Source: an uncultured delta proteobacterium (lineage in GTDB: Bacteria; Desulfobacterota; Syntrophobacteria; BM002). From it: a stretch of 64,000 nucleotides of DNA. Positions 35,610-50,510 of this stretch are shown here, piece after piece. The stretch is from NCBI GenBank assembly GCA_963712115.1, contig CAVQGX010000042.1, forward strand, positions 121,299 to 185,298, read 5' to 3'. Numbering within the stretch: the stretch's first letter is position 1; each line of letters starts with the position of its first letter. Under the pieces are notes generated by a model, which was not told the DNA's origin, did not search any database, and saw nothing but the letters and a program-made list of their open reading frames with translations. A program made the position numbers and the translations under genes.

Positions 35610-36252
35610 ATGAATAGGTGTATGTTCTTTTCCATTCTGGTTGCAATTGTGTTGCTGTTTCCCAATAATGCCTCAGCGGACAAGGCTCCCCGTAAAATAG
35701 CAGGGACTTACCCTGGGAGAGCAGATTTCCATGTTTGTCGACCTTGTACAAATGGAGACCTCCATAGTACTCCGTGATCGACAGTATTTGCGCGAAGTAA
35801 ATATTCGGGAAATCGACGGCTATAAAAGCGGCACCGTGGACTTTGGCAACTGTTCCAAGCCGGGGCAGATTGTTCGGATCAAGTTAAAATATGAATACGA
35901 GGACAAGAATTTTTACGATGAACTTCTGGAAAAATTCAACAAGAAGTTTGGAGAACCTGATGAGTGGCGTGGCGACCCCTTTCACGTCATCATAGCCTGG
36001 AAATGGTCTTTCAGGGATGAGAACGGCAACAGCATCAGTCTGATCCTCCAGCACAGCAGGGACGAGGAATATAAGTGGGGAAACTCGATTAAGTTGACAA
36101 ACACCACCCTAATTGAACAAGAACGTCTATGTTACGAGAAGAGGAATCAGGAGGAAGGAGGTAGCAAAGAGAGCAAGTCCGCCTCCAAAGAGGCGCAAGC
36201 TGTCAGAAAAAGATTATCAACTTTTTATTCCCCAGTAAAATGTCTAAAATGA
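35610..36252 (+). pseudogene. Exported hypothetical protein, frameshifted (possibly sequencing error)
   Basis: Signal peptide from ATG 35610 (AAGGAG RBS) shifts frame at GCAGGGACT ~35705 into ORF 35731-36252; probable second shift near 36190. Confidence 0.65.
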
Positions 36253-36595
36253 ACTAAAATGTGCTAAAGTGCCTAAAATTAAGGACTTAAGAGCTTTCAA
36301 AATAATCTCGCAAATAGCGATCTTATTCCCAAAATCCGCTTTGCTCCTGGCGCGATTCGCTTCGCGGTAATTTGCACCAACAGAAGTACCTGATTTCGTC
36401 ATTTGAGTCCTCACTGCCCTCCCTTTTGGTGTATTCGGCAGAGACGACGAAAGACGAACAATGTCAATTGCAAATTGCTTCGTCCGCTCCTCCAACTCCT
36501 TTGCAAACTTCTTAATATTCCTCGCCATTAGCCCCTACTCTTTAGCTCATTTTAGACACTTTAGACACTTTAGGCATTTTAGGCATTTTAGATAC
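36237..36595 (-). mobile_element. Four-helix-bundle cassette 2 with inverted 9-mer tandem arms
   Basis: Left arm aaatgtctaaaatgaactaaaatgtgctaaagtgcctaaa; right arm tttagacactttagacactttaggcattttaggcattttag; ORF between them. Confidence 0.7.
36244..36528 (-). pseudogene. Four-helix-bundle (23S rRNA IVS / Avd-like) protein, 3' part deleted
   Basis: LEERTKQFA...QMTKSGTSVGANYREANRARSKADF.NKIAICE, then runs into flank DNA. Confidence 0.85.
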
Positions 36596-36596
36596 T

Positions 36597-38016
36597 TCAC
36601 ATCAACGCCCTGGCGGCGGCTCGGGCAAGCTCTAGCAGGTATTGGGGAAATACCCCAAGGACCAGCATTGCCGTTACCAGTGCTCCCGTGAGCATTTTGG
36701 TGGGAATGGACACTTGCAGGCGGGGCAAAGATTGATCCGACTCCAGGAGGTAGGCGGCTCTCACTACCAGAATGTAGTAGTAGAGAGAGATCACCACATT
36801 GATCATGGCGATGAGCACCAGGGTGAAATAACCCTTCTTCATGGCAGCGGCAAAGACAAGGAATTTACCGGTGAAGCCAATGGTCGGCGGAATACCGGCC
36901 AGACCAAAAACTCCCAGCATCAGAGCCATGGCCAGCATGGGGGAGCGACGATGTAACCCGGCCAGTTGGGCGATCTTCAGATCGCTGCCGTCATAGGCCA
37001 CTTTGACCACCACCAAGAAGCAGGTGAACTTCATTATCAGATATGCCACGGCATAAAAGATGGCGCCGGCATATCCACTCTGATTCATGCTGAGAATCCC
37101 GATAAGGACGTAGCCGGCGTGGGAGATACTGGAGTAGGCCAGCAACCGTCTTCATGTCTTTCTGCACGATTGCCACTAGATTTCCCAGAGTCATGGAAGC
37201 GATGGAGAGAGTAACCAGTACGTGAACAAGATAGATGCTGCTGCCGCTGCTTAGGGCAACCATTCGGGTGAGGATAGCCACTGCCGCCACCTTCGAGGCT
37301 GTGGCAATGTAAGCGGTGACCTGATTTGCTGCTCCTTGGTAGGCGTCAGGAGCCCAAAAGTGAAAGGGGAAAACGGCTAGCTTAAAGAAAAACCCGCACA
37401 AGGTAAGGAGCAGGCCGATTATGGCGGCGGGCCTTCCTATGACGGAGGGAAGTACTGTTATAATCTCAGCCACATAAGTGGTGTGAACAACACCATAGAG
37501 AGAGGCTATGCCAAATAGCATCACCGCAGAAGTAAAGGCTCCCACCAGAAAGTACTTGATACCCGACTCCACATGAACTCCGTAGCCCTTCCGGAGTGGA
37601 ACCAGAAGGTAAAGGGAGTAACTGGAGAGTTCCAGGGCCACGTAGATCGTCAGCAACTCGACACTGCTGACCAGCAGCATCATGGCCAAGGTGCAGGTGG
37701 TCATTAGAAGGTAGAATTCTGGATGGTGGTTCTCCTGAATCCCCTTGAGTTCAGAGCAGATGCAGATTACCAGGAAAAAACCTGTGGCTAGGACGAGTTT
37801 GAAGACCTGAGAAAATAGGTCCACCCGATAGACATTAAAGAATAGAGTTCCCTCCAGCTTGACTGAGGCCAGACAAACCACCACGCCTACAGTGGCCAGA
37901 AGGAGAGCGATGAAAAAATCCCTTTTGGGATTGGACTGCAACACCATAGCCAGGCAGAGGAATACACCTATCATCAACATGAAATACAGTTCAGGTATGA
38001 ACAAGCCCCATTGCAT
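36597..38016 (-). CDS. nuoN: NADH-quinone oxidoreductase subunit N (one frameshift near 37149)
   Basis: [30 protein letters not shown], then [22 protein letters not shown]; removing one base restores DMKRLLAYSS. Confidence 0.88.
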
Positions 38017-38037
38017 AGGTGCAATCCACTACTGGGT

Positions 38038-38592
38038 AAAATGTCTAAAGTGCCTAAAGTTATTTTGCAGTGCCTAAAATGTTCTAAAATGTGCAAAAAT
38101 GCCTAAAATTAAGGACTTAAGAGCTTTCAAAATAATCTCGCAAATGTCAGTCAAAGCCACGTTCCTATTTTTTTCCGATAGAAGTGAAAATAGCCAGTAG
38201 TTCACTACATTCATCATAATGAGGCTGCAATTCATCCCAGGACTTCCATCCTACTCCTGCAATTACTTCTAGCCATTACTGAGTTTCACTAGCCTCACTT
38301 TCGCAAATAGCAATCTTGTTCCTAAAATCCGCTTTGCTTCTGGCCCGGTTAGCTTCACGGTAATTGGCCCCAACAGATGTCCCTGCCTTGGTTAATTGAG
38401 TTCTAATGGTCCTTCCTTCCGGCGTATTTGGCAAACTCGATGAAAGACGGATGATATCGATTGCAAATTGCTTGGTTCGCTTCTCTAACTCCTTTGCAAA
38501 CTTCTTAATATCTCTCGTCACAATCTGACGCCTTTATCTCGTTATAGACACTTTAGACATTTTAGACACTTTAGTTCATTTTAGGCATTTGA
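38038..38592 (-). mobile_element. Four-helix-bundle cassette 1 with inverted 9-mer tandem arms
   Basis: Left arm aaatgtctaaagtgcctaaa...tgcctaaaatgttctaaaatg; right arm tagacactttagacattttagacactttagttcattttaggcattt. Confidence 0.7.
38165..38521 (-). pseudogene. Four-helix-bundle (23S rRNA IVS / Avd-like) protein with one internal TAA
   Basis: 118 codons: ...GTSVGANYREANRARSKADFRNKIAICESEASETQ*WLEVIAGVGWKSWDELQPHYDECSELLAIFTSIGKK; TAA at 38276-38278 where Tyr (ETxYWL) is expected. Confidence 0.88.
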
Positions 38593-38606
38593 AATGCCGG
38601 TGGCCA

Positions 38607-38912
38607 TCACCACTTCAGGATGTTGTAAGTGTCCGGATCCAGTGAGCCTGTCCGTCTATAGGCATATATAATCAATGCCAGCCCCACAGACACTTCGGCT
38701 GCTGCTATGGCAAAGATGAACAATACAAACACCTGTCCCTCCAACTGCTGCCAGCGCAGTGAAGCGGCAACGAAGGCAAGCCCGGCCGAGTTCAGCATGA
38801 TTTCCACACCGATGAGCATCATAATCAAATTACGCCGAGCCACAGCGCATACCACCCCCATGGCGAAAAGAATCCCCGCAAAAAAAAGGACATGACTGTA
38901 CGGCACTATCAT
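38607..38912 (-). CDS. nuoK: NADH-quinone oxidoreductase subunit K
   Basis: RRNLIMMLIGVEIMLN, GQVF, AAAEVSVGLAL. Confidence 0.94.
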   Translation of the reverse strand: MIVPYSHVLFFAGILFAMGVVCAVARRNLIMMLIGVEIMLNSAGLAFVAASLRWQQLEGQVFVLFIFAIAAAEVSVGLALIIYAYRRTGSLDPDTYNILKW

Positions 38913-39436
38913 TTTTCGACCTCTTTTTCACGCCCGGTATCTTTAGCGAAGGCTTTTCCCAGATACAAGGCTCCAACCAGCGCTATAAGCAGCAGGAAAG
39001 ATACTATCTCAACTGAGAGCCAATATTTTTGAAAGAGAAATTGGCCAAATACTCTTGGCTTTGCCACCGCTGTTTCCAGTATGGTCCGGCTACCCGGATC
39101 TTGGGTCACCACAAGAATGGCAATAACTACATAAATCAGGCCCAGAACACCAGCGGGAAGCCAGTGTCTAAGTGAGGGGGGGCGGAGAGTTGAAGGATCC
39201 ACCCGGAGCATCATGATGATGAAAAGGAAGAGGACCATTATTGCCCCAGCATAAATGATGATTTCTAAAGCGGCCAGGAGTGGAGCTCCGAAAAGGTAAT
39301 AGAGCATGGCGCTGCCAAAAAAGGAGATGATCAAATAGACTATGGCGTGCACAAGATTTCGCCGGGTAATGGCCAGGCCGGTGGAAACGAGAATGACACC
39401 GGCAAGTACATAAAAGATGACAGCATAAAGGGTCAT
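38909..39436 (-). CDS. nuoJ: NADH-quinone oxidoreductase subunit J
   Basis: IYAGAIMVLFLFIIMML, EIVSFLLLIALVGA. Confidence 0.94.
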   Translation of the reverse strand: MTLYAVIFYVLAGVILVSTGLAITRRNLVHAIVYLIISFFGSAMLYYLFGAPLLAALEIIIYAGAIMVLFLFIIMMLRVDPSTLRPPSLRHWLPAGVLGLIYVVIAILVVTQDPGSRTILETAVAKPRVFGQFLFQKYWLSVEIVSFLLLIALVGALYLGKAFAKDTGREKEVEK

Positions 39437-39512: not shown

Positions 39513-39685
39513 AATGTCTAAAATGAACTAAAGTGTCTAAAATGCCTAAAATGATCTAAAATCCGAAAGCCGCAATCCGACATCTGTCTTCTGTCCTCTG
39601 ATCTCTGATTTCCGACCTCTGACCTCTGACTCCTGCCTCCAACCTAAAGCGTAGCGTTCCTCCAACCGCGACTGCCTGCTGTCTC
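39513..39685. repeat. Intergenic repeat mosaic
   Basis: 9-mer array, aatccg units, tctgacc units, and a 36-bp block that is the reverse complement of 31558-31593 (1 mismatch). Confidence 0.8.
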
Positions 39686-39696
39686 GAGGCTAACTC

Positions 39697-40233
39697 CTAC
39701 GGCATATTGCTCTTGATGTTAACGGGTTTGTCCTCTTTGATATGGGTACCTTTGTCACCTACTTCGGTTACCACCCCGGCGTAACGATAGAAGTTGTACT
39801 CTTTATCCTTGCCACCGTGGTCAACCAGAAGGTCTTCCTTTTCGTAGACCAGTTTCAAAATGTCGCGCTCGCAGGTTTCGAAATGGGGCGTCAACTGGAT
39901 GGCCGAGGTGGGACAGGCTTCCTCGCAAAGTCCGCAATAGATACAGCGGGCGAAATTAATTCGAAACCAACGGGCATAGCGACGCCCATCTTCTCTTTCG
40001 GCAGATTGCATTGAAATGCAGCTGACCGGGCACGCAGCCGAGCACAGATAACAGGCGACACAACGTTCCTCTCCATCCGGATCGCGGGTCAGGATGATTA
40101 CTGCCCTGGCTCGCTCTGGTAAGACCCTTTTGTATTCCGGGTATTCTTCCGTAATGGGTTTACGAAAGAGATGCTTGAAGGTGGTGGCAAACCCAGTGAA
40201 AATGGCCACTATGCCTTCTAAAGCGGTTTTCAT
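39697..40233 (-). CDS. nuoI: NADH-quinone oxidoreductase subunit I
   Basis: CVACYLCSAACP and CIYCGLCEEACP. Confidence 0.95.
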   Translation of the reverse strand: MKTALEGIVAIFTGFATTFKHLFRKPITEEYPEYKRVLPERARAVIILTRDPDGEERCVACYLCSAACPVSCISMQSAEREDGRRYARWFRINFARCIYCGLCEEACPTSAIQLTPHFETCERDILKLVYEKEDLLVDHGGKDKEYNFYRYAGVVTEVGDKGTHIKEDKPVNIKSNMP

Positions 40234-40326: not shown

Positions 40327-41310
40327 TCACATTAATAGTACTGCTCCAGTTACCACTATGTTTATTAACGCCACAGGTACCAGAACCTTCCAGCCCAGGT
40401 GCATGAGTTGATCATAGCGTAGCCGTGGCAGGGTGCCTCTCACCCAAATCATGAGAAGGGCAATGGCCAGAACCTTAATCAAGAACCAAACCACCGGCGG
40501 CAGTAAGGGACCATGCCAGCCTCCTAAGAAAAACACGGCTACCAGAGCGCCCAGAACCTGAAGGTTGACATATTCACCAAGAAAGAACAGGCCGAAACGC
40601 ATACCGCTATATTCAGTATGGTACCCGGCGCCCAACTCATTTTCCGCCTCAGGGAGATCAAATGGAATGCGTTTTGTTTCAGCCACAGCGCTGATCAAGA
40701 AAATTATGAATGAAATCGGTTGTACTAGAATAAAGGGATAATCAGCCTGGGCCCGAACAATATCCACCAAGCTGAAGGAGCGGGCCAGCATGACTATGGG
40801 TACGAGTGAAAGGCCCAAAGAGAGTTCGTAGCTGATCATCTGGGCCGCGCCCCGAATACCTCCCAAAAGACTGTACTTCGAGTTTGAGGCCCAGCCTCCC
40901 AAGGCAACTCCGTAAACACCCAGTGATGCCAGGGCAAAAACATAAAGCAGTCCCACGTTCAAATCTGTTATCACCATGGGGATATTTTTCCCCAAAAGGG
41001 TTATGCTGGCTCCAAAAGGTACCACTGCAAAGATGAGTAGCGCCTCAATGGCAACCACTGCCGGAGCCAAAAGAAAAATGACCCTGTCGGCTTCTGCGGG
41101 CACAATATCTTCTTTGGTCAACATCTTGATCGTGTCGGCAAAGGGCTGCAGCAGTCCGTACTTGCCGGCACGGTTGGGGCCGTAGCGGATCTGTAACCGT
41201 CCCAGAAACTTCCGCTCCACAAGCACCAGGTAGGCGGCCAGCAGCAAAAGACCGACAAGCACCACCCCCAGTTTAACGATCAGGATTATGAATCCGAGTA
41301 TCCAATCCAT
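40327..41310 (-). CDS. nuoH: NADH-quinone oxidoreductase subunit H
   Basis: ERK..GRLQIRYGPNR, AQMISYE, PFDLPEAENEL, PRLRYDQLM. Confidence 0.96.
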   Translation of the reverse strand: MDWILGFIILIVKLGVVLVGLLLLAAYLVLVERKFLGRLQIRYGPNRAGKYGLLQPFADTIKMLTKEDIVPAEADRVIFLLAPAVVAIEALLIFAVVPFGASITLLGKNIPMVITDLNVGLLYVFALASLGVYGVALGGWASNSKYSLLGGIRGAAQMISYELSLGLSLVPIVMLARSFSLVDIVRAQADYPFILVQPISFIIFLISAVAETKRIPFDLPEAENELGAGYHTEYSGMRFGLFFLGEYVNLQVLGALVAVFFLGGWHGPLLPPVVWFLIKVLAIALLMIWVRGTLPRLRYDQLMHLGWKVLVPVALINIVVTGAVLLM

Positions 41311-41507: not shown

Positions 41508-44019
41508 TTAGGTACTGACTTTTTTTACGTCCTCATATGACACAAACTTCGGCAAGCTCTTTATCTTCTGCCACTCTAGCAACCGATGTCGCGGCAAAAC
41601 CATTACCCCGGGAGCCATATCCTCTTCTACCCAGACATCCACTTCAACAACGCCTTCGTCCAACTTGATTTTTACTTTATCCCCACGGCCTAGCCCCAAT
41701 CTAGCGGCATCATTGGTATGCATGGAAGCGCAGGGACTTTTCTCCAACTTCCTGAGGGGAGGTGAAAACGAGGAGAGTTCTTCGGTTCCGAATGTCCAAT
41801 CAGTCAAGATGACTTCCAAAGAGTCCTTAGGGTCGTCGCCTTTATCTTTCTCCTCCTGCCAATTTGCTGAAAATTGAGGTGGGGTGTCATCAGATGAGCT
41901 GATCAGCATCCCGTCGTCAGTAAGTTCATCGAAATGCGGGACCTCCGCCAATGCAGGTATATTGTCAGCTAGCCAACCAAGCAGGTTCCGCCGGGTGCTA
42001 CCTTCATCTTCAACTGAGCTACCATTTGCAATATGATTTAGAAACTGAGAGGCGGCTCGCACCTCTCCGCCGGGGATTTCACTTTCATAGACCCTTGGCG
42101 GATGGTTCCCACCACCAATCTGAGCAATAGAAGTTCCCCCCAGATAGGCCTTTGGAGCAGCCTGTAGTCTTCCCTCCTGGTTGATGAACATTCCACCTGA
42201 CTCGTATAATGTCGAGGTGGGCAGGAACACATGAGCTTTCTGAACCGCGGCCGACTCAAGGTAATCAAGGACAACGAGCAAATCCAGCTTTTCTATGGCC
42301 AGATCTAACCTCTGCCTGTGGTGAAAGTTGTGAAAGGGGTCATTTTCAACCAGGATCAGACCTTTGATCCTACCGTTTTCCATGCCTTCGAGTATCTCCA
42401 AAAAAGAGAACTTTTTGCTGGCGAGCAATGAAGCCCCGAAAGAATTAGCTTGAGGCAGCAAATAAAAAAGACCTGCTTGCTTTTTCGCAGCCCGCAAGAG
42501 TTGGGCATGGTCGGCCGCCAAGGCAGGGGTGGTCTCTCGCACAATCTGAGTCCCGCAGACGATTACCACCCTTCGACTGGCTCGAAGTTCTTGTGCCAAA
42601 GCAGAAGCTTTTTCTTGAAGTAAGTCCGGAACAATCTCAAAGGTCGGTGCCTCTTGGTAGAATTCGGCAGCAGTCTCTCCAGCTTCTGCAATAACTTCGT
42701 GATCCACCGCTGCTTTGATCAACGCACCAAAGTAGAGATTTATCTCATCCAGCCTGCACAGGCAGGTGGGTGAAGTCGAAAGGCAAAAAGATGGGTCGTG
42801 GGTCTATTACAACTATCTTTGCGCCATTTCGCTGGGCTTGTCTCATTGCCAAAGCCGACATGGGAGCTTCATTGATCGGATCAGCTCCAAGTGCGAGAAT
42901 AAAATCTGCACCTTCCAGATCGCGGAGTGAAACCGCCAATCCTGGATCCAGTCGAGAGACTGCTGTTCTCACCTTTTCCGCCAGGGAGTTTTCCATAAAA
43001 TATGAGGGCCCTTGCCATGCCTTTTTCTGACAAAGCTGCTTGAGCACAGCCTGAGTTTCCAAACTGCTCCGCCCCGAGCCTAAGCAGGCAACACTGTCGG
43101 GGCCTGGACTATTTACGAGCTCTGCCAGTTTTTCCCTGGCAGTTCGGATAGCCTCCTCAGTGGGAACTTCCTTGCCGTCAATTAGAGCCTGCCGCGGCCT
43201 CGTCTCATTTCTAGCGTAGTGAAAGCCGTGGCGTCCCCGGTCGCAGATGAAATAGCCGTTTACAGCCTCACTGTATCTTGCTTCCTGTCTAACCACCTCA
43301 CGATAGCGGGCACTGGCTGTAGTGTGACATCCCAGTGAACAGTTTATGCAGAGAGAAGGACTTCGCTGGTAGTCCCAACGCCTGCCGAAGAATCGAGACG
43401 GTCGGTCAGTGTAAACCCCGGTGGGGCAGATGTCGCTTAAGTTCCCGCTGAAAGGGCTTTCCAGAATGCCGTCTTTAAACCGACCAAAATAAGTGCGATT
43501 GGCGCTTTGCATGACTCCCAAGTCGAAGTAGCCAGCAAACTCCTGGTAGAACCGTGAACACCTGTAACAGTGGATACAGCGGTTCATTTCGTGTTGCACC
43601 AAAGGTCCTAGGTACTGGTCTCGGTAGGTTCGTTTCAACCCCAAATATCTTCTCATTCCATGTCCACCCGAAATTGTCGTATCCTGGAGCAAGCAGTGGC
43701 CCCCTTCATCACAAACCGGGCAATCATGGGGATGGTTCAGCATCAACCATTCGATTACGTATTTGCGGAACTCAACCGCCTCTTCGTCGGTGGTGGAAAC
43801 TATCATGCCGTCCTTCGCATCGATCATGCAGCTCATTTGTACGCCTTTAAAAGGCCCCTCCAGGAACTTCACCGCACAAACACGGCACGCACCCACAGAC
43901 CCCAAGGCTTGATGGTAACAGAAGCGCGGAATCATTATGCCCAGTTGCTTCGCGGCTTCGATTACCTTTGTCCCTTCCGGGACTTCTATCTCACGATTAT
44001 CGATTATTATCTTTGCCAT
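41508..44019 (-). CDS. nuoG: NADH-quinone oxidoreductase subunit G (one frameshift near 42757)
   Basis: IPRFCYH, GACRVC, HPHDCPVCDEGG, CIHCYRC, CINCSLGC; continues in another frame as LDEINLYFGALIKAAVD. Confidence 0.9.
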
Positions 44020-44034
44020 GTCAGATCAAATGTC

Positions 44035-44335
44035 TCAAGTGAGCTAAAATGTCTAAAGTGCCTAAAATTTGAAATCTGCAATCAGAAAGCAAAGAATCCA
44101 GTAGCCAGTAGCCAGTATTAATTTCGCAATTCGAAATTATTAATCCCTGATCTCTGACTTCCGACCTCTGACCCCTACCAATTACAACAAATGACAGCGC
44201 AGCGTAATGACCTAATGACGCCGAAGGCTAATGACAGAGTAGCCTGATCATGGCAAGGTCAACTTGAGCGAACCGCGGCTGCCTGCTGTCAGTTGCCTCC
44301 TGCCGGCTGTCTTACCCCCATGCTCTATGCCTACA
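44035..44335. repeat. Repeat mosaic containing copy 2 of the 172-bp element (44161-44332)
   Basis: 9-mer array, gtagcca units, then identity with 35203-35374. Confidence 0.9.
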
Positions 44336-44378: not shown

Positions 44379-45650
44379 CTACTTAAAAGGACATTTCTTC
44401 TGTGAGATATGCTCCCTTACCTCATCCTCAAAATATGTAATCAGACTCTCAACAGGTGATACGGCCCCGGGTGCGAAGGCACAGTAAGAACTCCAGAGGT
44501 GCTTGCTCATCTGCTGAAGCATGGGAATGAACTCTTCCTCACCCTCGCCTTCCTCCAATCGCCTCAGCAAATCCCTGATATACGGCAATCCCTCCCGGCA
44601 AGGTGTACACCAGCCACATGATTCTCGGGCGAAAAATTCAACCAGGTTCAAGGTAGCGGCGACAAGACAGGTTTTCTGATTAAAGACCATAATCGCCCCG
44701 GTGCCTAGCCTGTGTCCAACATTGCGCAAGGTATCGAAATCCATCTCGATATCATAGAAGTCCCTGGGCAAGAACCGGGTTGAGGCACCACCCGGCAGAC
44801 AGGCCTTGTATTCTGATCCCCCGACCATTCCGCCGGCATGCACCTCAATGATTTCGCTCAACCGAACTCCCATGGGAAGTTCATAGCAACCTGGACTATT
44901 TATCTTGCCGCTTACGCAGAAAATCTTGGTCCCGGCACCGGTTTCTGTGAGCGCCAGGTTCTTGAACCATTCAGGCCCATTTCTAAGTATGTGTGGCATG
45001 CAGGCAAGGGTTTCCACGTTTTGAAGCACTGTGGGCTTTTGCCAGAGCCCTTTTTCTGTGGGATAGGGGGGTGGCTGCTGAGGGTTGGCTCTTTTTCCCA
45101 TGAGAGCATTTAGTTGTGCTGTTACCTCACCGCAGATATACCTGCCAGCACTGCGGTGGACAACGATGTCTAGGGAATAGCCATTCCCCAGTATGTTCTT
45201 ACCCAGATAGCCGGCCTCCTCTGCTATCTTGATTTCTCTTTCCAGAATTCTTGCTGCACTCTCGTACTCGGGCCGGATAAAAATTACGCCCTTCTCCGCC
45301 TGGGCTCCGTACCCAGCTATGATCATTCCCTCGATGAGCATGTGGGGATCGGCGTGGATCAAAACTCGATCTTTGAATGTGCCTGGTTCCATCTCATCAG
45401 CATTGCACACGATGTATCTCGGATGGGGTGCATCATCCGCCACGGTCATCAGTTTTCTGCCGGCTGGAAAAGCGGCACCGCCCCGCCCCAGAAGCACCGC
45501 ATCCAAGAGGACTTGTTGCACCTCCTTATAGGAAGACCTCCGCAGCGTATCAGCCAACCCCTCGTATCCGCCGCTCTGCCGGTATTCTTCCAGCGTGGCA
45601 ATCCGGTCTGGTTTTCGATTCTGGAAGAGCACTTGAGGGTAATTCATCAT
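44379..45650 (-). CDS. nuoF: NADH-quinone oxidoreductase subunit F
   Basis: GRGGAAFP, NADEMEPGTFKDR, YICGE, ESCGWCTPCREG. Confidence 0.95.
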   Translation of the reverse strand: MMNYPQVLFQNRKPDRIATLEEYRQSGGYEGLADTLRRSSYKEVQQVLLDAVLLGRGGAAFPAGRKLMTVADDAPHPRYIVCNADEMEPGTFKDRVLIHADPHMLIEGMIIAGYGAQAEKGVIFIRPEYESAARILEREIKIAEEAGYLGKNILGNGYSLDIVVHRSAGRYICGEVTAQLNALMGKRANPQQPPPYPTEKGLWQKPTVLQNVETLACMPHILRNGPEWFKNLALTETGAGTKIFCVSGKINSPGCYELPMGVRLSEIIEVHAGGMVGGSEYKACLPGGASTRFLPRDFYDIEMDFDTLRNVGHRLGTGAIMVFNQKTCLVAATLNLVEFFARESCGWCTPCREGLPYIRDLLRRLEEGEGEEEFIPMLQQMSKHLWSSYCAFAPGAVSPVESLITYFEDEVREHISQKKCPFK

Positions 45651-45902
45651 AAATGCCTAAAGTGTCTAAAATGTTCTAAAATGCCTAAAGTTAAGGTAAG
45701 GGGTCGTTCAAATCGTTCAAGTCGTTCAAATCGCAAAAGCTTAAGTAGCCAGGACTCAGTAGCCAGAATCCAGAGAGGCATACGGCTCAGGGCTCAGGGC
45801 ACAAGGAAAAAAATTTAGTCTTCTATTGCCTTGTGCCTTGCGCCTTATGCCTTGCGCCTATCATCAATTTGCAATCTACAATCTAAAATCTTAAATCTAC
45901 AG
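45651..45902. repeat. Ordered intergenic repeat mosaic
   Basis: aaatgcctaaagtgtctaaa, tcgttcaaa units, ggctcagg/gccttgc hairpin, aatct units. Confidence 0.85.
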
Positions 45903-46376
45903 TTAGGCTTCTGCTCTTAGTCTTTCCAGAATGTCGTCTAACTTCTCAATCGTGAGCGGTCCATATACCTTCTTGTTAATCATAATAGCCGGCGCCCTGT
46001 CACAGTAGCCAATGCAGCAGACTGGCAGCAAGCTGAACATCCTATCTGGGGTGGTCTCACCCAGGTTTATCCCCAACTTCCCAGAGAGATGATCCAGCAG
46101 GGATTCGTGTCCTTCCATCCAGCAGATGACGCTGTCGCACACATGTATGACGTATTTGCCCACGGGTTCTCGGTAGATGAAGGTGTAAAAGGTGGCCAGC
46201 TGTTCCACTTCCAGGGGAGACATGTCCAGAAGTTCAGCTACCTCCTCGACGGCTTCATCGCTCAAATAGCCGTAGTGATCCTGAACAGCGAACATGACAT
46301 CCACCACCAACTCACGGGGATGGTCAATGCTGGCGATGTTCTTTTGCAGCGATTGTTTGAGTTCTCTAGGTATCAT
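45903..46376 (-). CDS. nuoE: NADH-quinone oxidoreductase subunit E
   Basis: ATFY, VCDSVIC, CIGYCDRAP. Confidence 0.94.
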   Translation of the reverse strand: MIPRELKQSLQKNIASIDHPRELVVDVMFAVQDHYGYLSDEAVEEVAELLDMSPLEVEQLATFYTFIYREPVGKYVIHVCDSVICWMEGHESLLDHLSGKLGINLGETTPDRMFSLLPVCCIGYCDRAPAIMINKKVYGPLTIEKLDDILERLRAEA

Positions 46377-46386
46377 TGGAGGTCTT

Positions 46387-46635
46387 TAAAATGAGCTAAA
46401 ATGTACTAAAGTTTGGTTATAGGTTATGGGTTATTGGTCGTTTAAATCGTTAAAATCGTCCATCACAGAGGTCAGAAGTCGGAGATCAGAGATCAGCTTT
46501 ACCCCTGACCTCAGACATCTGATCTCTGACCTCTGAGTTCTACTTGCTGCCTGCTATCCGCTGTCTGCTGCCTGCTGAAACTCTATGCTCTATGCCTTTC
46601 CAAATCCGCAATCCGAAATCCCAAATCCGAAATCC
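46387..46635. repeat. Ordered intergenic repeat mosaic; inverted counterpart at 51135-51322
   Basis: 46462-46534 is almost the exact reverse complement of 51250-51322. Confidence 0.85.
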
Positions 46636-46637
46636 CT

Positions 46638-49600
46638 TTACCTATCAATATCCGGGAGAATGTAGTCAATGGATCCGATGGTGGCGATCAAGTCGGCTAT
46701 ACTCTCACCCACAGCCATAAGCGGCATTACTTGTACATTTGCAAACCCCGGTGAGCGTATACGGGTGCGGTACGAATAACCGAGTCCGTCACTCACAACA
46801 TAATAGCCCTGCTCTCCCCTGGGGATCTCGCAGGATGCGTAAGCCTCCCCTCTGGGGATCTTGGCTCCTCGGGTCACGTTGATAAAGTGATGTATCAGGC
46901 TCTCTATATCTTTCAACATGTCCGACCTTTGGGGGATCACATAGCGATAATCATCTGTCACGTAGCGCCCAGATGGCATCTGCTCCGCGGCTTGCTTGAT
47001 AATTTTCAAGCTTTGGCGCATTTCCTCGACCCTCACCAGATAGCGAGCGTAGCAATCTCCCTCGGTGGCAGTGGGAATCTCAAAATCAAAGTTTTCGTAG
47101 CCTGAGTAGGGAAACTTTTTCCGTAAATCCCACTCCAGGCCGCAAGCCCGCAAGTTAGGACCGCTTACACCCCAATCAATTGAGTCCTCCAAAGAAATGC
47201 GACCGATGCCTTGAGTTCTAGCTTTAAAGATGGGGTTTTTGGTTGTCAGAGCTTCGTATTCTTTGAGTCGATTAGGAAATATCTTGACGAAATGATCAAC
47301 AGCTTCTTTCCAGCCCTCCGGCAAATCCGCGGCAACGCCTCCCAGCCGGAACCACGAGGGATGCAATCGACCTCCGGTTATGAGCTCAACTATGTCAAGA
47401 AGGATTTCCCGCTCTCTAAAGGTATAGAAATTAGGGGTCATGGCCCCCAAGTCGTGAGCGAAGGTAGCAAAAAAGACGAGATGATTGCTTAAGCGGAAAA
47501 ACTCGCTGAGCATAACCCTGATCACCTGGGCCCGCTCCGGAACTTCTATACCAGCCAGAGTTTCAACGGCCATGACGTAGGGAAGATTGTTGGCTGCCCC
47601 AGCCAAATAATCCACACGATCTGTATATGGAATGTACTGGTTCCAGGTTTGTCTTTCGCCAATTTTTTCCGCCGCCCGATGATGGTAACCAATGTCCATG
47701 TCCATTTCGGTTATTTCTTCACCGTTGAGGGAAACTATATAGCGCATCAAACCGTGGGTACTTACATGGTGGGGACCGATGTTTAGTATGAGCTCGTGTT
47801 CTCTACCCTCTCTTTTGATGTAGATACCGCCGTCCAAGGGTTGGAGCCTCTGGGCATCGGCAAGAGTGTAAGGAGTCATTTCCGTGGCTCGACCTGGATG
47901 ACTCTTTCTCAGGGGATGGCCCTCCCAGTCGTGGGGCATAATAAGTCTCCGCAGGTTCGGATGGCCTTCGAACCTTATGCCAAACATGTCGAATACTTCC
48001 CGCTCGTACCAGTTTGCAGAGGGCCAGATATCAGTCACACTTTGAGCTAAAGGATCTTGCCTTTTAATCCCACTTTAAGCCGCAACCTGGTGGCGGGCAA
48101 AAATATTTGAATTGTTATAATTTTAAGTTTAGGATTTATGAATAAATAGGAGGTAGAATATTGGTGGCAGTGGGAATCTCAAAATCAAAGTTTTCGTAGC
48201 CTGAGTAGGGAAACTTTTTCCGTAAATCCCACTCCAGGCCGCAAGCCCGCAAGTTAGGACCGCTTACACCCCAATCAATTGAGTCCTCCAAAGAAATGCG
48301 ACCGATGCCTTGAGTTCTAGCTTTAAAGATGGGGTTTTTGGTTGTCAGAGCTTCGTATTCTTTGAGTCGATTAGGAAATATCTTGACGAAATGATCAACA
48401 GCTTCTTTCCAGCCCTCCGGCAAATCCGCGGCAACGCCTCCCAGCCGGAACCACGAGGGATGCAATCGACCTCCGGTTATGAGCTCAACTATGTCAAGAA
48501 GGATTTCCCGCTCTCTAAAGGTATAGAAATTAGGGGTCATGGCCCCCAAGTCGTGAGCGAAGGTAGCAAAAAAGACGAGATGATTGCTTAAGCGGAAAAA
48601 CTCGCTGAGCATAACCCTGATCACCTGGGCCCGCTCCGGAACTTCTATACCAGCCAGAGTTTCAACGGCCATGACGTAGGGAAGATTGTTGGCTGCCCCA
48701 GCCAAATAATCCACACGATCTGTATATGGAATGTACTGGTTCCAGGTTTGTCTTTCGCCAATTTTTTCCGCCGCCCGATGATGGTAACCAATGTCCATGT
48801 CCATTTCGGTTATTTCTTCACCGTTGAGGGAAACTATATAGCGCATCAAACCGTGGGTACTTACATGGTGGGGACCGATGTTTAGTATGAGCTCGTGTTC
48901 TCTACCCTCTCTTTTGATGTAGATACCGCCGTCCAAGGGTTGGAGCCTCTGGGCATCGGCAAGAGTGTAAGGAGTCATTTCCGTGGCTCGACCTGGATGA
49001 CTCTTTCTCAGGGGATGGCCCTCCCAGTCGTGGGGCATAATAAGTCTCCGCAGGTTCGGATGGCCTTCGAACCTTATGCCAAACATGTCGAATACTTCCC
49101 GCTCGTACCAGTTTGCAGAGGGCCAGATATCAGTCACACTTTGAGCTAAAGGATCTTGCCCTTTTAATCCCACTTTAAGCCGCAACCTGGTGGCGGGCTC
49201 GAAGGACAGCAGATTGTAAACCAGAGTATAATCCGGGTAGTTCTGGCGATTCCTGCGAGTAGATTCATCAACAGCAGTAAGATCCTCTAAACGTTGGTAC
49301 CGTGGGGTGGCCTCCTGTTTGAGGAATTTAATCATCTCTTTGAGCCGCTCTTCCTCCACCTGAAAGGTAAGCATGTCAGAGGTTTGCTCCGTCTGCTTCA
49401 CACTGTCGCTGAACCTTTGTTGAAGAGTTTTGGCCAGACTATTGTCACCCTCACTTAACTCGATTCGTCTCGACGGTGGCGTCCACATTAAATCCGAGCG
49501 GCTGTCCCAGAATCCAGGCGGCACTGAGGAAGTTCCCCGTATGGCAGTTCCTTGCATTCCGGGCCCCCGAGGATCTCTAGACTTTGTTTGGCCGTCAACC

Positions 49601-50127
49601 AGAATAGGCTTTTGAGTCCCTTGGGTTCCACCCTTAAGATGGAAGATTGTGCGAGTTGGTCGTTCCTCGGCAACTATTTTTTCCTGCAACATTACGAGCC
49701 CTTGTAGTACGGCCTCAGGTCGCGGCGGACAGCCTGGGATGTAGACATCCACCGGCAGTATTTGATCCACTCCCTGAACCACACTGTAGGCATCGTACAT
49801 TCCCCCGCTGTTGGAACAAGAACCCATGGAGATGACCCACTTAGGTTCCGCCATCTGCTCGTAAAGCCTTAAAACAACCGGTGCAATCTTTTTGAAAACC
49901 GTGCCAGAGACAATAAGGAGATCCGCCTGCCTCGGTGAAGGCCGAAGCACCTCTGCTCCGAACCGAGCCATGTCATATCTGGCGGTGAAGGCTGCTGCCT
50001 CCTCGACGAAACAGCATGAAAGGCCGAAAAACATAGGCCAGAGACTGTACTTGCGAGCCCAGTTAATCAGGACGTCAGCCCCCCTCAAGAGGGGGTTGTT
50101 CAATCCTCTCTCGATGTTGGCCCCCAC
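46638..50127 (-). CDS. nuoBCD: Fused NADH-quinone oxidoreductase subunit B/C/D, interrupted by an internal duplication
   Basis: GLSCC and PGCPPRP (B), [16 protein letters not shown] (C), GPHHVSTHG...PDIDR (D); joining 50127-48163 to 47063-46638 gives one 797-codon frame. Confidence 0.88.
47064..49198. repeat. ~1035-bp direct duplication (47064-48098 and 48163-49198) with a 64-bp AT-rich spacer
   Basis: Copies match by eye except one C indel (ttgcctttt vs ttgccctttt). Confidence 0.92.
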
Positions 50128-50510
50128 TCGAGCCCTCCCTTCCTCCAAATGTAAACAAGGCCAAGAAGCAGGACGAAGATAAAGAAGGATATCTGCAGCC
50201 AGCCAGCCCAACCGAGCCTGTAGTAGGAGATGGCCCAAGAAAAGATGTAGGCTGCTTCCACATCGAAAATTAGGAAAAAAATGGCAACAAGAAAAAATGG
50301 AACGGGGTAACGGAGGCGGGCTGAGCCTGTTGGGATGATGCCGCTTTCATACGGTCGCAGTTTTTCCGGATTCTCTTTCTTTTCCCCCAGCCAGGAGGCA
50401 AAGAAGAGGAGCACTGCCACCAAGCCCAGTACCATAAGACCATAGACGGCCAAGCTAAAAAGACCAGGCTCCCAGGGAGATAATGAAGCTCCATGAAGGA
50501 TTGGCTGCAC
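50100..50510 (-). CDS. nuoA: NADH-quinone oxidoreductase subunit A
   Basis: [28 protein letters not shown]; GTG start with GGAGG RBS. Confidence 0.94.

Follow-up and report, generated by a model that had tools for sequence, protein, structure and literature searches.

Decayed hairpin-armed four-helix-bundle cassettes in a complex I operon and their probable likeness to 23S rRNA intervening sequences

The complex I (nuo) operon of an uncultured delta proteobacterium, encoded on the - strand of the 64,000-nucleotide (nt) stretch analyzed here (the window, G000:C42:121299-185298, where G000 denotes this genome; coordinates without a contig code are window positions), carries two small genes of the four-helix-bundle (4HB) family PF05635 in its intercistronic spacers, both co-oriented with the operon. 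It is rather probable that these genes belong to two decayed hairpin-armed cassettes whose design matches that of the intervening sequences (IVSs) of 23S rRNA that bear an open reading frame (ORF). The unit consists of a PF05635 gene enclosed by inverted arrays of short tandem repeats, and the repeat is specific to the protein subfamily. Comparison of congener loci shows the unit as gained, lost and decayed at different nuo spacers, and a wider comparison shows that arm type and protein subfamily are passed on jointly in different families of the phylum. Both copies in this genome are relics, no longer active.

Outside the diversity-generating retroelements (DGRs), the very large family PF05635 has no known function. 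The origins of rRNA IVSs and of bacterial heptamer-type intergenic repeats are old questions, and the locus links both with this family. Within one genus and one operon it also offers a natural series of intact, nonsense-bearing, internally deleted, arm-only and replaced-cargo forms.

Anatomy and decay of the two cassettes

Cassette 2 occupies the spacer between nuoK (Oxidored_q2; 38607-38912, - strand) and a nuoN-type antiporter subunit (Proton_antipo_M; 36597-38016, -), both recognized by profile match. Its 5' arm (38541-38592, -) starts 15 nt past the nuoK stop and holds about five units of the type RTG(N1-2)CTAAA, read on the coding strand. The 4HB gene hb2 (38165-38521, -) follows, with a GTG start at 38521, and is succeeded by a conserved inner 3' segment of GAAAGCTCTTAAGTCCTTAA type (38110-38145, -) and by a 3' arm of TTTAG(N1-2)CAY units (38038-38109, -) that ends 24 nt before the nuoN ATG. 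Cassette 1 repeats this arrangement on the other side of nuoN, with a 5' arm of five to six units directly after the nuoN stop (36541-36594, -), the truncated 4HB gene hb1 (36244-36528, -; profile match), the same inner 3' segment (36280-36315) and a 3' arm of TTTAG(N1-2)CAY units (36237-36279, -) ending in ...TTTAGACATTTTAC. This ending is shared by both cassettes, and the DNA beyond it is unrelated. The motif of the inner segment is found ahead of the 3' arm in G015 and G017 as well (such codes stand for compared genomes). The nuoN gene is bracketed by arrays complementary to each other, the 3' arm of cassette 2 and the 5' arm of cassette 1. A first-pass annotation of this DNA had described a 5' array and a 3' reverse-complement array around each gene, co-oriented with the operon after nuoK and nuoN, and this layout was confirmed; the 9-mer arms that it reported are real arrays, although their units proved to be both 9- and 10-mers.

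The similarity of the two cassettes identifies them as copies of one another: the hb2 and hb1 ORFs share 80% nt identity over 220 nt, their proteins 85% over 74 residues, and the 3' arm with the inner 3' segment 93% over 75 nt. The family assignment made at first pass holds for both ORFs, with scores above the cut-offs of PF05635 (50.4 bits for hb2 and 38.7 bits for hb1; cut-off 33.8) and of TIGR02436 (64.1 and 50.6 bits; cut-off 24).

Both 4HB genes are dead, and neither retains a complete four-helix domain in an open frame. In hb2 the open frame (38279-38521) is closed after residue 81 by an in-frame TAA (38276-38278), beyond which the frame continues to 38165; the protein reads SETQ*WLEV vs SETQYWLQV in intact relatives, a change of TAC (Tyr) to TAA. 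In hb1, 163 nt were lost between two ATTTGCGA 8-mers, the C-terminal half of the domain is gone, and the remainder covers profile positions 7-65 of 106. Intact relatives of hb2, of about 120 amino acids (aa), occur in G017, G004 and G055.

A profile scan detected no transposase inside either cassette, in agreement with the first-pass annotation. No target-site duplication was visible at either one when congener spacers were compared, the empty spacers being themselves full of other arrays. An Rfam scan of eight cassette loci (E <= 1) returned no rRNA or other family, and its lone match was at chance level (H19_2, E 0.14). No reverse transcriptase, template repeat or variable repeat was found at the loci, whose neighbors are nuo genes only; a genome-wide search for reverse transcriptases was not made. 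No terminator-like site lies within the arms of either cassette. A cassette promoter was considered and rejected: two 9-of-12 sigma-70-like matches, which take the first TAAAAT of each 5' arm as -10, are too weak, and the scan yielded 8 sites in all vs 3.5 +/- 2.1 in shuffles.

Linkage of genes and arms within and beyond the genome

Arms were scored by comparing the 220 nt upstream of a gene with the reverse complement of the 260 nt downstream, with a threshold of 13.5. Inverted tandem-repeat arms reaching this score flank all 13 PF05635 loci of G000 vs 101 of 4456 control ORFs (2.3%), the high-scoring controls being insertion sequences with ordinary terminal repeats or ordinary genes between heptamer spacers of one family. 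An absence of inverted arms at 4HB genes elsewhere in the genome, which would have refuted the first-pass reading, was not observed. Each 4HB subfamily of the genome possesses its own repeat unit (GCATRGA, GTCATTA, AAATCCG, CGAGACG, CAGAGGT and others). Among 29 cassettes, arms are shared by 90% of the 39 pairs with proteins at least 70% identical, 38% of the 53 pairs at 55-70%, 2% of the 233 pairs at 40-55% and 0% of the 81 pairs below 40%; these pair counts are descriptive, related cassettes being non-independent.

Tandem arrays of period 12 or less number 1,997 in G000, including 1,178 of period 7, vs 13 PF05635 loci. This abundance, together with the inverted matches across 2.3% of control ORFs, favors an arrangement by chance, in which two small ORFs merely came to lie between spacers rich in repeats and arms and gene are unlinked. 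Such a coincidence is hardly credible given that every PF05635 locus of the genome is armed and that arm type and subfamily also go together elsewhere, in other families of the phylum for the subfamily of hb2 and across phyla for a second one.

Arrays of period 7-10 occupy 56 kb of G000. The largest repeat families are ACTAGGC (116), ACCTCTG (92) and AAATCCG (67); several of the largest match the arms of 4HB subfamilies, and ACTAGGC was seen without a 4HB partner in this genome.

At the level of the phylum, the hb2 subfamily was detected at E <= 1e-25 in 16 of the 401 sampled genomes, G000 included. Correctly oriented RTG..CTNAR units, at least two per side, flank 8 of the 14 loci with 61-72% identity on both sides and a further 4 on one side; the four loci at 47-49% identity lack them. 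In the AAATCCG-armed subfamily, proteins are 59-79% identical among records whose labels span more than ten phyla (Planctomycetota, Patescibacteria groups, Desulfobacterota, Bacteroidota, Verrucomicrobiota, Chloroflexota, Gammaproteobacteria and others). In the comparison behind these figures 535 relatives were confirmed. The loci of this subfamily reach an arm score of at least 13.5 in 67 of 80 cases, and the same unit stands on both sides in 51 of 80 vs none of 80 control windows placed 600 nt farther away. Judged from these comparisons, gene and arms travel together.

Within the nuo operon of congeners, the hb2 subfamily with 9-mer arms is represented between nuoD and nuoE by an intact 122-aa frame with an eight-unit 5' arm in G017 and by an internally deleted copy in G011, directly before nuoH by an intact copy in G004, and after nuoN by a broken one in G016. 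A further intact member, 72% identical and with very long arms, occurs in G055, which belongs to another family of the class. The 122-aa protein of G017 and its GTGYCTAAA array (unit form GTGCCTAAA) form a candidate cognate pair. The nuoK-nuoN spacer measures 189-823 nt over nine loci, the nuoK genes being 89-95% identical, and its content varies. G010 carries there a different 4HB gene, 42% identical to hb2 and 71% to a copy on contig C30 of G000, with the AAATCCG arms of the latter. G015 carries a Y1_Tnp-like gene (PF01797, 32.8 bits; locus L003, G015:C266, 910-1410) inside the same 9-mer bracket, flanked by GC-rich hairpins of its own. A glyoxalase-family gene is found in G008 and G013, and the other loci hold repeats only. 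The cassette is sporadically distributed among these close relatives; fixation at one site, which would have refuted the first-pass reading, was not seen. With no transposase in cis, copying between sites may use the existing arrays as homology or landing sites.

The variety of cargo bears on a DNA-level explanation, according to which the arrays extrude hairpins or cruciforms on single-stranded DNA and a HUH/Y1 (RAYT-like) or other recombinase, acting in trans, moves the contents of the loop, 4HB genes being the commonest cargo. The Y1_Tnp-like gene in the G015 bracket, the four Y1_Tnp loci of G000 and the different cargo of the loops in each species agree with it, and the lack of a sense-strand wobble excess, described below, is its prediction. 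Arm type, however, tracks the 4HB subfamily, which is unexpected with arbitrary cargo, and no supporting junctions were found. Y1 elements work with sub-terminal hairpins of their own and not with tandem arrays, which also counts against this explanation, and it is regarded as quite improbable.

Some neighboring observations concern the same kind of structure. Three 4HB cassettes of three subfamilies, with AAATCCG, CGAGACG and CAGAGGT arms, lie within 3.3 kb at G000:C30:121568-124795 (L017). Another 4HB gene, at G000:C14:38459-39044 (L024) and with arms of GCATAGA type, is interrupted by an insert of about 280 nt, whose ORF resembles, by eye only, a small GIY-YIG nuclease. Three of the five PDDEXK_3 genes of the genome (G000:C46:9416-9766, C31:229316-229666 and C31:167808-168158), which we take to be of the GxxExxY type, stand between short inverted heptamer arms (CGCAGAG, CACGAAG). 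A AAGGGGCAC motif just 5' of the ATG is common to these genes and to many 4HB genes, and the PDDEXK_3 genes possibly represent a second family of cargo for hairpins of this kind.

Predicted arm pairing and comparison with known systems

Treated as RNA, the two arms form a duplex of -39.2 kcal/mol in cassette 2 (z -8.6) and of -43.3 kcal/mol in cassette 1 (z -10.7; 300 mononucleotide shuffles each), with a predicted stem of 36-41 bp. In the minimum-free-energy fold of 38030-38606 the arms make up the closing stem (z -2.67; 1 of 100 shuffles as stable). The stable pairing that had been proposed at first pass is in line with these values. In the polycistronic nuo RNA the arms would pair into this stem with the gene looped out, and the stem would be a plausible RNase III substrate by analogy with the rRNA element of Coxiella.

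According to the passages of PMC4990558 that deal with it, the IVS of Coxiella burnetii is a 428-nt insert in helix 45 of 23S rRNA with a 28-bp terminal stem; it contains a decaying S23p (PF05635) ORF preceded by three tandem GACAGAT heptamers, whose number varies among strains, and is excised by RNase III, which cuts at the first repeat. The cassettes have the protein family in common with the rRNA IVSs of Coxiella and Leptospira, S23p being PF05635. They also resemble them in the position of the gene in the loop of an inverted-repeat stem (28 bp in Coxiella and a predicted 36-41 bp here), in the tandem short repeats of variable copy number found directly upstream of the ORF start, in ORF decay, in a sporadic distribution of horizontal type and in the lack of a transposase. 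The differences are that the cassettes are located in intercistronic spacers of a protein operon and not in a 23S or 16S rRNA helix (9, 25 or 45), that their units are 9/10-mers and not heptamers, and that their arms also stand alone at dozens of sites as leader-orientation arrays; RNase III excision, which in rRNA IVSs goes without religation, was shown for the rRNA element, whereas here it is proposed by analogy. By this comparison the cassettes share every architectural feature of the Coxiella IVS except the host molecule.

Avd, the accessory protein of DGRs, has a homologous four-helix-bundle fold and family, and PF05635 resembles it according to the part of PMC10053308 concerned with it. 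The present loci differ in having no reverse transcriptase, template or variable repeat, and in having nuo genes on both flanks. Avd binds nucleic acid. Repetitive extragenic palindromes (REPs), bacterial interspersed mosaic elements (BIMEs) and REPINs with their RAYT genes, as well as miniature inverted-repeat transposable elements (MITEs), are similarly short dispersed intergenic hairpins that outnumber any linked gene, and a Y1-like gene in the same bracket of one congener adds to the likeness with the RAYT-linked kinds. In contrast to these, the arms described here are tandem 7-10-mer arrays and not a single palindrome or terminal inverted repeat, and the linked gene is not a recombinase. 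Regarding the hallmarks of MITEs or insertion sequences, inverted arms are present, a duplication is not visible at the cassettes and no transposase lies inside.

Similar short tandem repeats between genes are the heptamers of cyanobacterial short tandemly repeated repetitive (STRR) sequences. In Beggiatoaceae, the TAACTGA repeats are tandem, nearly all intergenic and mostly of one orientation just upstream of start codons, like the solitary 9-mer arrays described below; the text of their description (PMC4679880) reports a single inverted set and does not contain 'helix bundle', 'intervening' or 'S23'. Units are heptamers in both of these systems and 9-10 nt here, and in contrast to TAACTGA the repeat families here match the arms of 4HB cassettes. 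A full-text literature search, in which subscription journals were not covered, found no publication on PF05635 genes between tandem-repeat arms outside rRNA.

Recognition of the arms is probably sequence-specific, with the encoded protein as the most likely reader, because the sequence of the unit is kept while the protein diverges by 30-40%; selection for complementarity alone would not account for this. The intact relative from G017 matches PDB entry 2rld, which holds five chains (E 4.6e-15), and a Xanthomonas S23p pentamer is cited in the part of PMC4990558 concerned. Relatives of known structure form pentameric rings. A tentative and unlikely extension of the idea is that ring-forming 4HB proteins would each recognize, in single-stranded RNA or DNA, the tandem 7-10-mer units that belong to them, with about one unit per subunit, in a TRAP-like manner. 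If this were true, the thousands of short tandem arrays of G000 would be operators or footprints of the 4HB family, and the same would apply to STRR- and TAACTGA-type repeats elsewhere; the cassette would be a protein-plus-operator module that spreads via operon spacers and wires cistrons post-transcriptionally, and the rRNA IVS would be one special case.

RNA data comprised 12 libraries, each with at most 0.18 of the sampled words and in the form of assembled contigs only. Three RNA libraries and one run of unknown kind gave short contigs over hb2-like and hb1-like interiors, which are uninformative on ends, strand and processing; the summed depth on arrays is high because many loci contribute. 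Candidate excision products were rejected: joints in run X2 skip 284-298 nt between the arms of cassette 1, but 22-28 other letters intervene, and these joints are gene-less hairpins of other loci or organisms.

Solitary arrays and the setting in the nuo operon

Arrays of the 9/10-mer family were located genome-wide by a unit-cluster scan that required at least three units of RTG(N1-2)CTAAA, with a block-shuffled genome as control; it superseded a strict period-9 scan, which gave 30 arrays only, its phase being broken by the 10-mer units. G000 contains 55 such arrays vs none in the block-shuffled genome. The majority are solitary, and each has 3-6 units, with a mode of 4. When read as (TTTAGRCAY)n, 42 of the 55 are followed within 150 nt by the start of an ORF of at least 80 aa, 29 of them within 24 nt, and in the opposite orientation an ORF start lies downstream of 12 of 55 only. 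A random-position control for downstream start codons was uninformative (911 of 2000), as in-gene positions pass it, and the comparison of orientations was used instead.

Of the 55 arrays, seven are found within 9.5 kb of the nuo operon, namely the four cassette arms and the solitary leader-orientation arrays of nuoJ (39514-39560, -; 77 nt before the start), nuoG (44039-44066, -; 19 nt) and nuoF (45653-45689, -; 2 nt). A degenerate leader-orientation array (CTTTAGTACATTTTAGCTCATTTTAAAG; 46386-46414, -), recognized by eye and under the three-unit threshold, precedes nuoE, where it closes a stack of heptamer arrays. In cassette 2, the 3' arm doubles as the leader array of nuoN. Of the eight loci of relatives compared, G014 has a clear four-unit array as nuoN leader, and G004, G015, G008, G013 and G007 retain 1-2 units or a degenerate form; the remnant occurs with or without a gene in the spacer. 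After nuoN, a 5'-type array follows the stop directly in G002, G007 and G010, and the far end of the spacer has a 3'-type array that is clear in G002 and G004 and degenerate in G007 and G010; the interior of the spacer in relatives contains nested heptamer hairpins and no 4HB gene. The nuoD-nuoE spacer contains GGATTKC, GGCATAG and CAGAGGT arrays, repeat families that also provide the arms of other 4HB subfamilies.

Several observations weigh against the IVS-like cassette reading. The 9-mer arrays are present at both spacers in congeners that have no 4HB gene there, and may therefore be host elements older than the cassette. In G000, whose assembly is 94% complete, 55 arrays persist but no intact cognate gene is left. 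Neither a target-site duplication nor a clean empty site was found, which leaves the insertion unit undelimited, and about 2% of ordinary genes (mraY-, tsaD-, L18- and nusA-like, by eye) are flanked by inverted heptamer arrays too. At the RNA level, pairing of arms across cassettes is as stable as within them (-42.6 and -46.7 kcal/mol); since such cross-cassette arms and the nuoN-flanking arrays also pair, several folds are possible and the fold in vivo is ambiguous. In 107 cassettes, G:U vs A:C combinations on the sense strand amounted to 207 vs 174 (p 0.10), which is no excess in a test that is weak because tandem arms pair in several registers, and selection on an RNA stem is therefore unsupported.

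Every empty spacer is itself a stack of arrays, and the solo arrays may descend from lost cassettes as their footprints or may be older host leaders that cassettes exploit. The first-pass view that the arms belong to the cassettes did not stand, most of the genome arrays being solitary and the same arrays occurring in congeners without the 4HB gene. Its wider reading of IVS-like selfish cassettes is retained as regards the likeness to IVSs and the movement between operon spacers, and corrected in that the arms are part of a repeat family spread over the genome and oriented toward start codons, that both genes are broken and that RNA excision is a proposal only.

These arrays invite an explanation in which they are cis-regulatory leaders of the host, 4HB proteins act in trans as binders of their cognate array on many mRNAs or promoters, and the cassette is the gene of a regulator that controls itself through two copies of its operator and not a selfish element. 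It accommodates the orientation bias (42 of 55 vs 12 of 55 pointing at an ORF start), the leader-orientation arrays before nuoF, nuoG, nuoJ and nuoN with the degenerate one before nuoE, the nuoN leader array or remnant at most of the eight loci of relatives, and the co-variation of unit sequence with protein subfamily; the TAACTGA repeats of Beggiatoaceae are likewise mostly forward and upstream of start codons, according to the portion of PMC4679880 that treats their placement. Yet there are 55 arrays but two dead cognate genes only in G000, the presence of the cassette per spacer varies among congeners, and copies are often broken. Furthermore, 4HB subfamilies 59-79% identical over records labelled as more than ten phyla fit a horizontal mover better than a housekeeping regulator. 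We hold the host-leader explanation to be possible, on the unlikely side. In the preferred reading, that of decayed IVS-like cassettes, the 3' arm would survive beside the downstream start codon after decay of the gene, which would explain the 55 remaining arrays, mostly solitary and pointing at a start codon. The positions of the cassettes relative to the start codons of essential respiratory genes could affect operon processing or translation.

The remainder of the operon, all on the - strand, comprises a nuoB-C-D fusion region (46641-50346), nuoE (45906-46385), nuoF (44379-45650), nuoG in two ORFs (42745-44019 and 41508-42722), nuoH (40327-41310), nuoI (39697-40233) and nuoJ (38909-39436). 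In the fusion region, a 736-aa ORF (48139-50346) covers the domains of nuoB, nuoC and, for its first half, nuoD, and a second ORF (46641-48074) restarts with the end of nuoC and continues with the full nuoD; the repeat is a partial tandem duplication of about 1 kb or a misassembly. The nuoG parts correspond to the N-terminal 424 aa and the C-terminal 404 aa, with 22 nt between them. The operon passes directly from nuoK to the nuoN-type subunit, without nuoL or nuoM, and a paralogue of the latter gene, 78% identical, is located about 105 kb away on the same contig (G000:C42:52967-53833). The nuoN gene is split into two ORFs (36991-38016 and 36597-37145) by a 1-nt frameshift near 37148-37150, which is probably an assembly error or a minor variant: its orthologues are open frames of 473-486 aa, and one base is omitted at 37148-37150 in contigs of other runs, X14 (depth 16.7 of 22.1, otherwise identical) and also X2. 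A 173-aa ORF on the opposite strand (35731-36252, +) runs convergently toward cassette 1 and shares a few bases with the 3' arm of the latter; it has no Pfam or NCBIfam match, and its region is kept downstream of nuoN in congeners.

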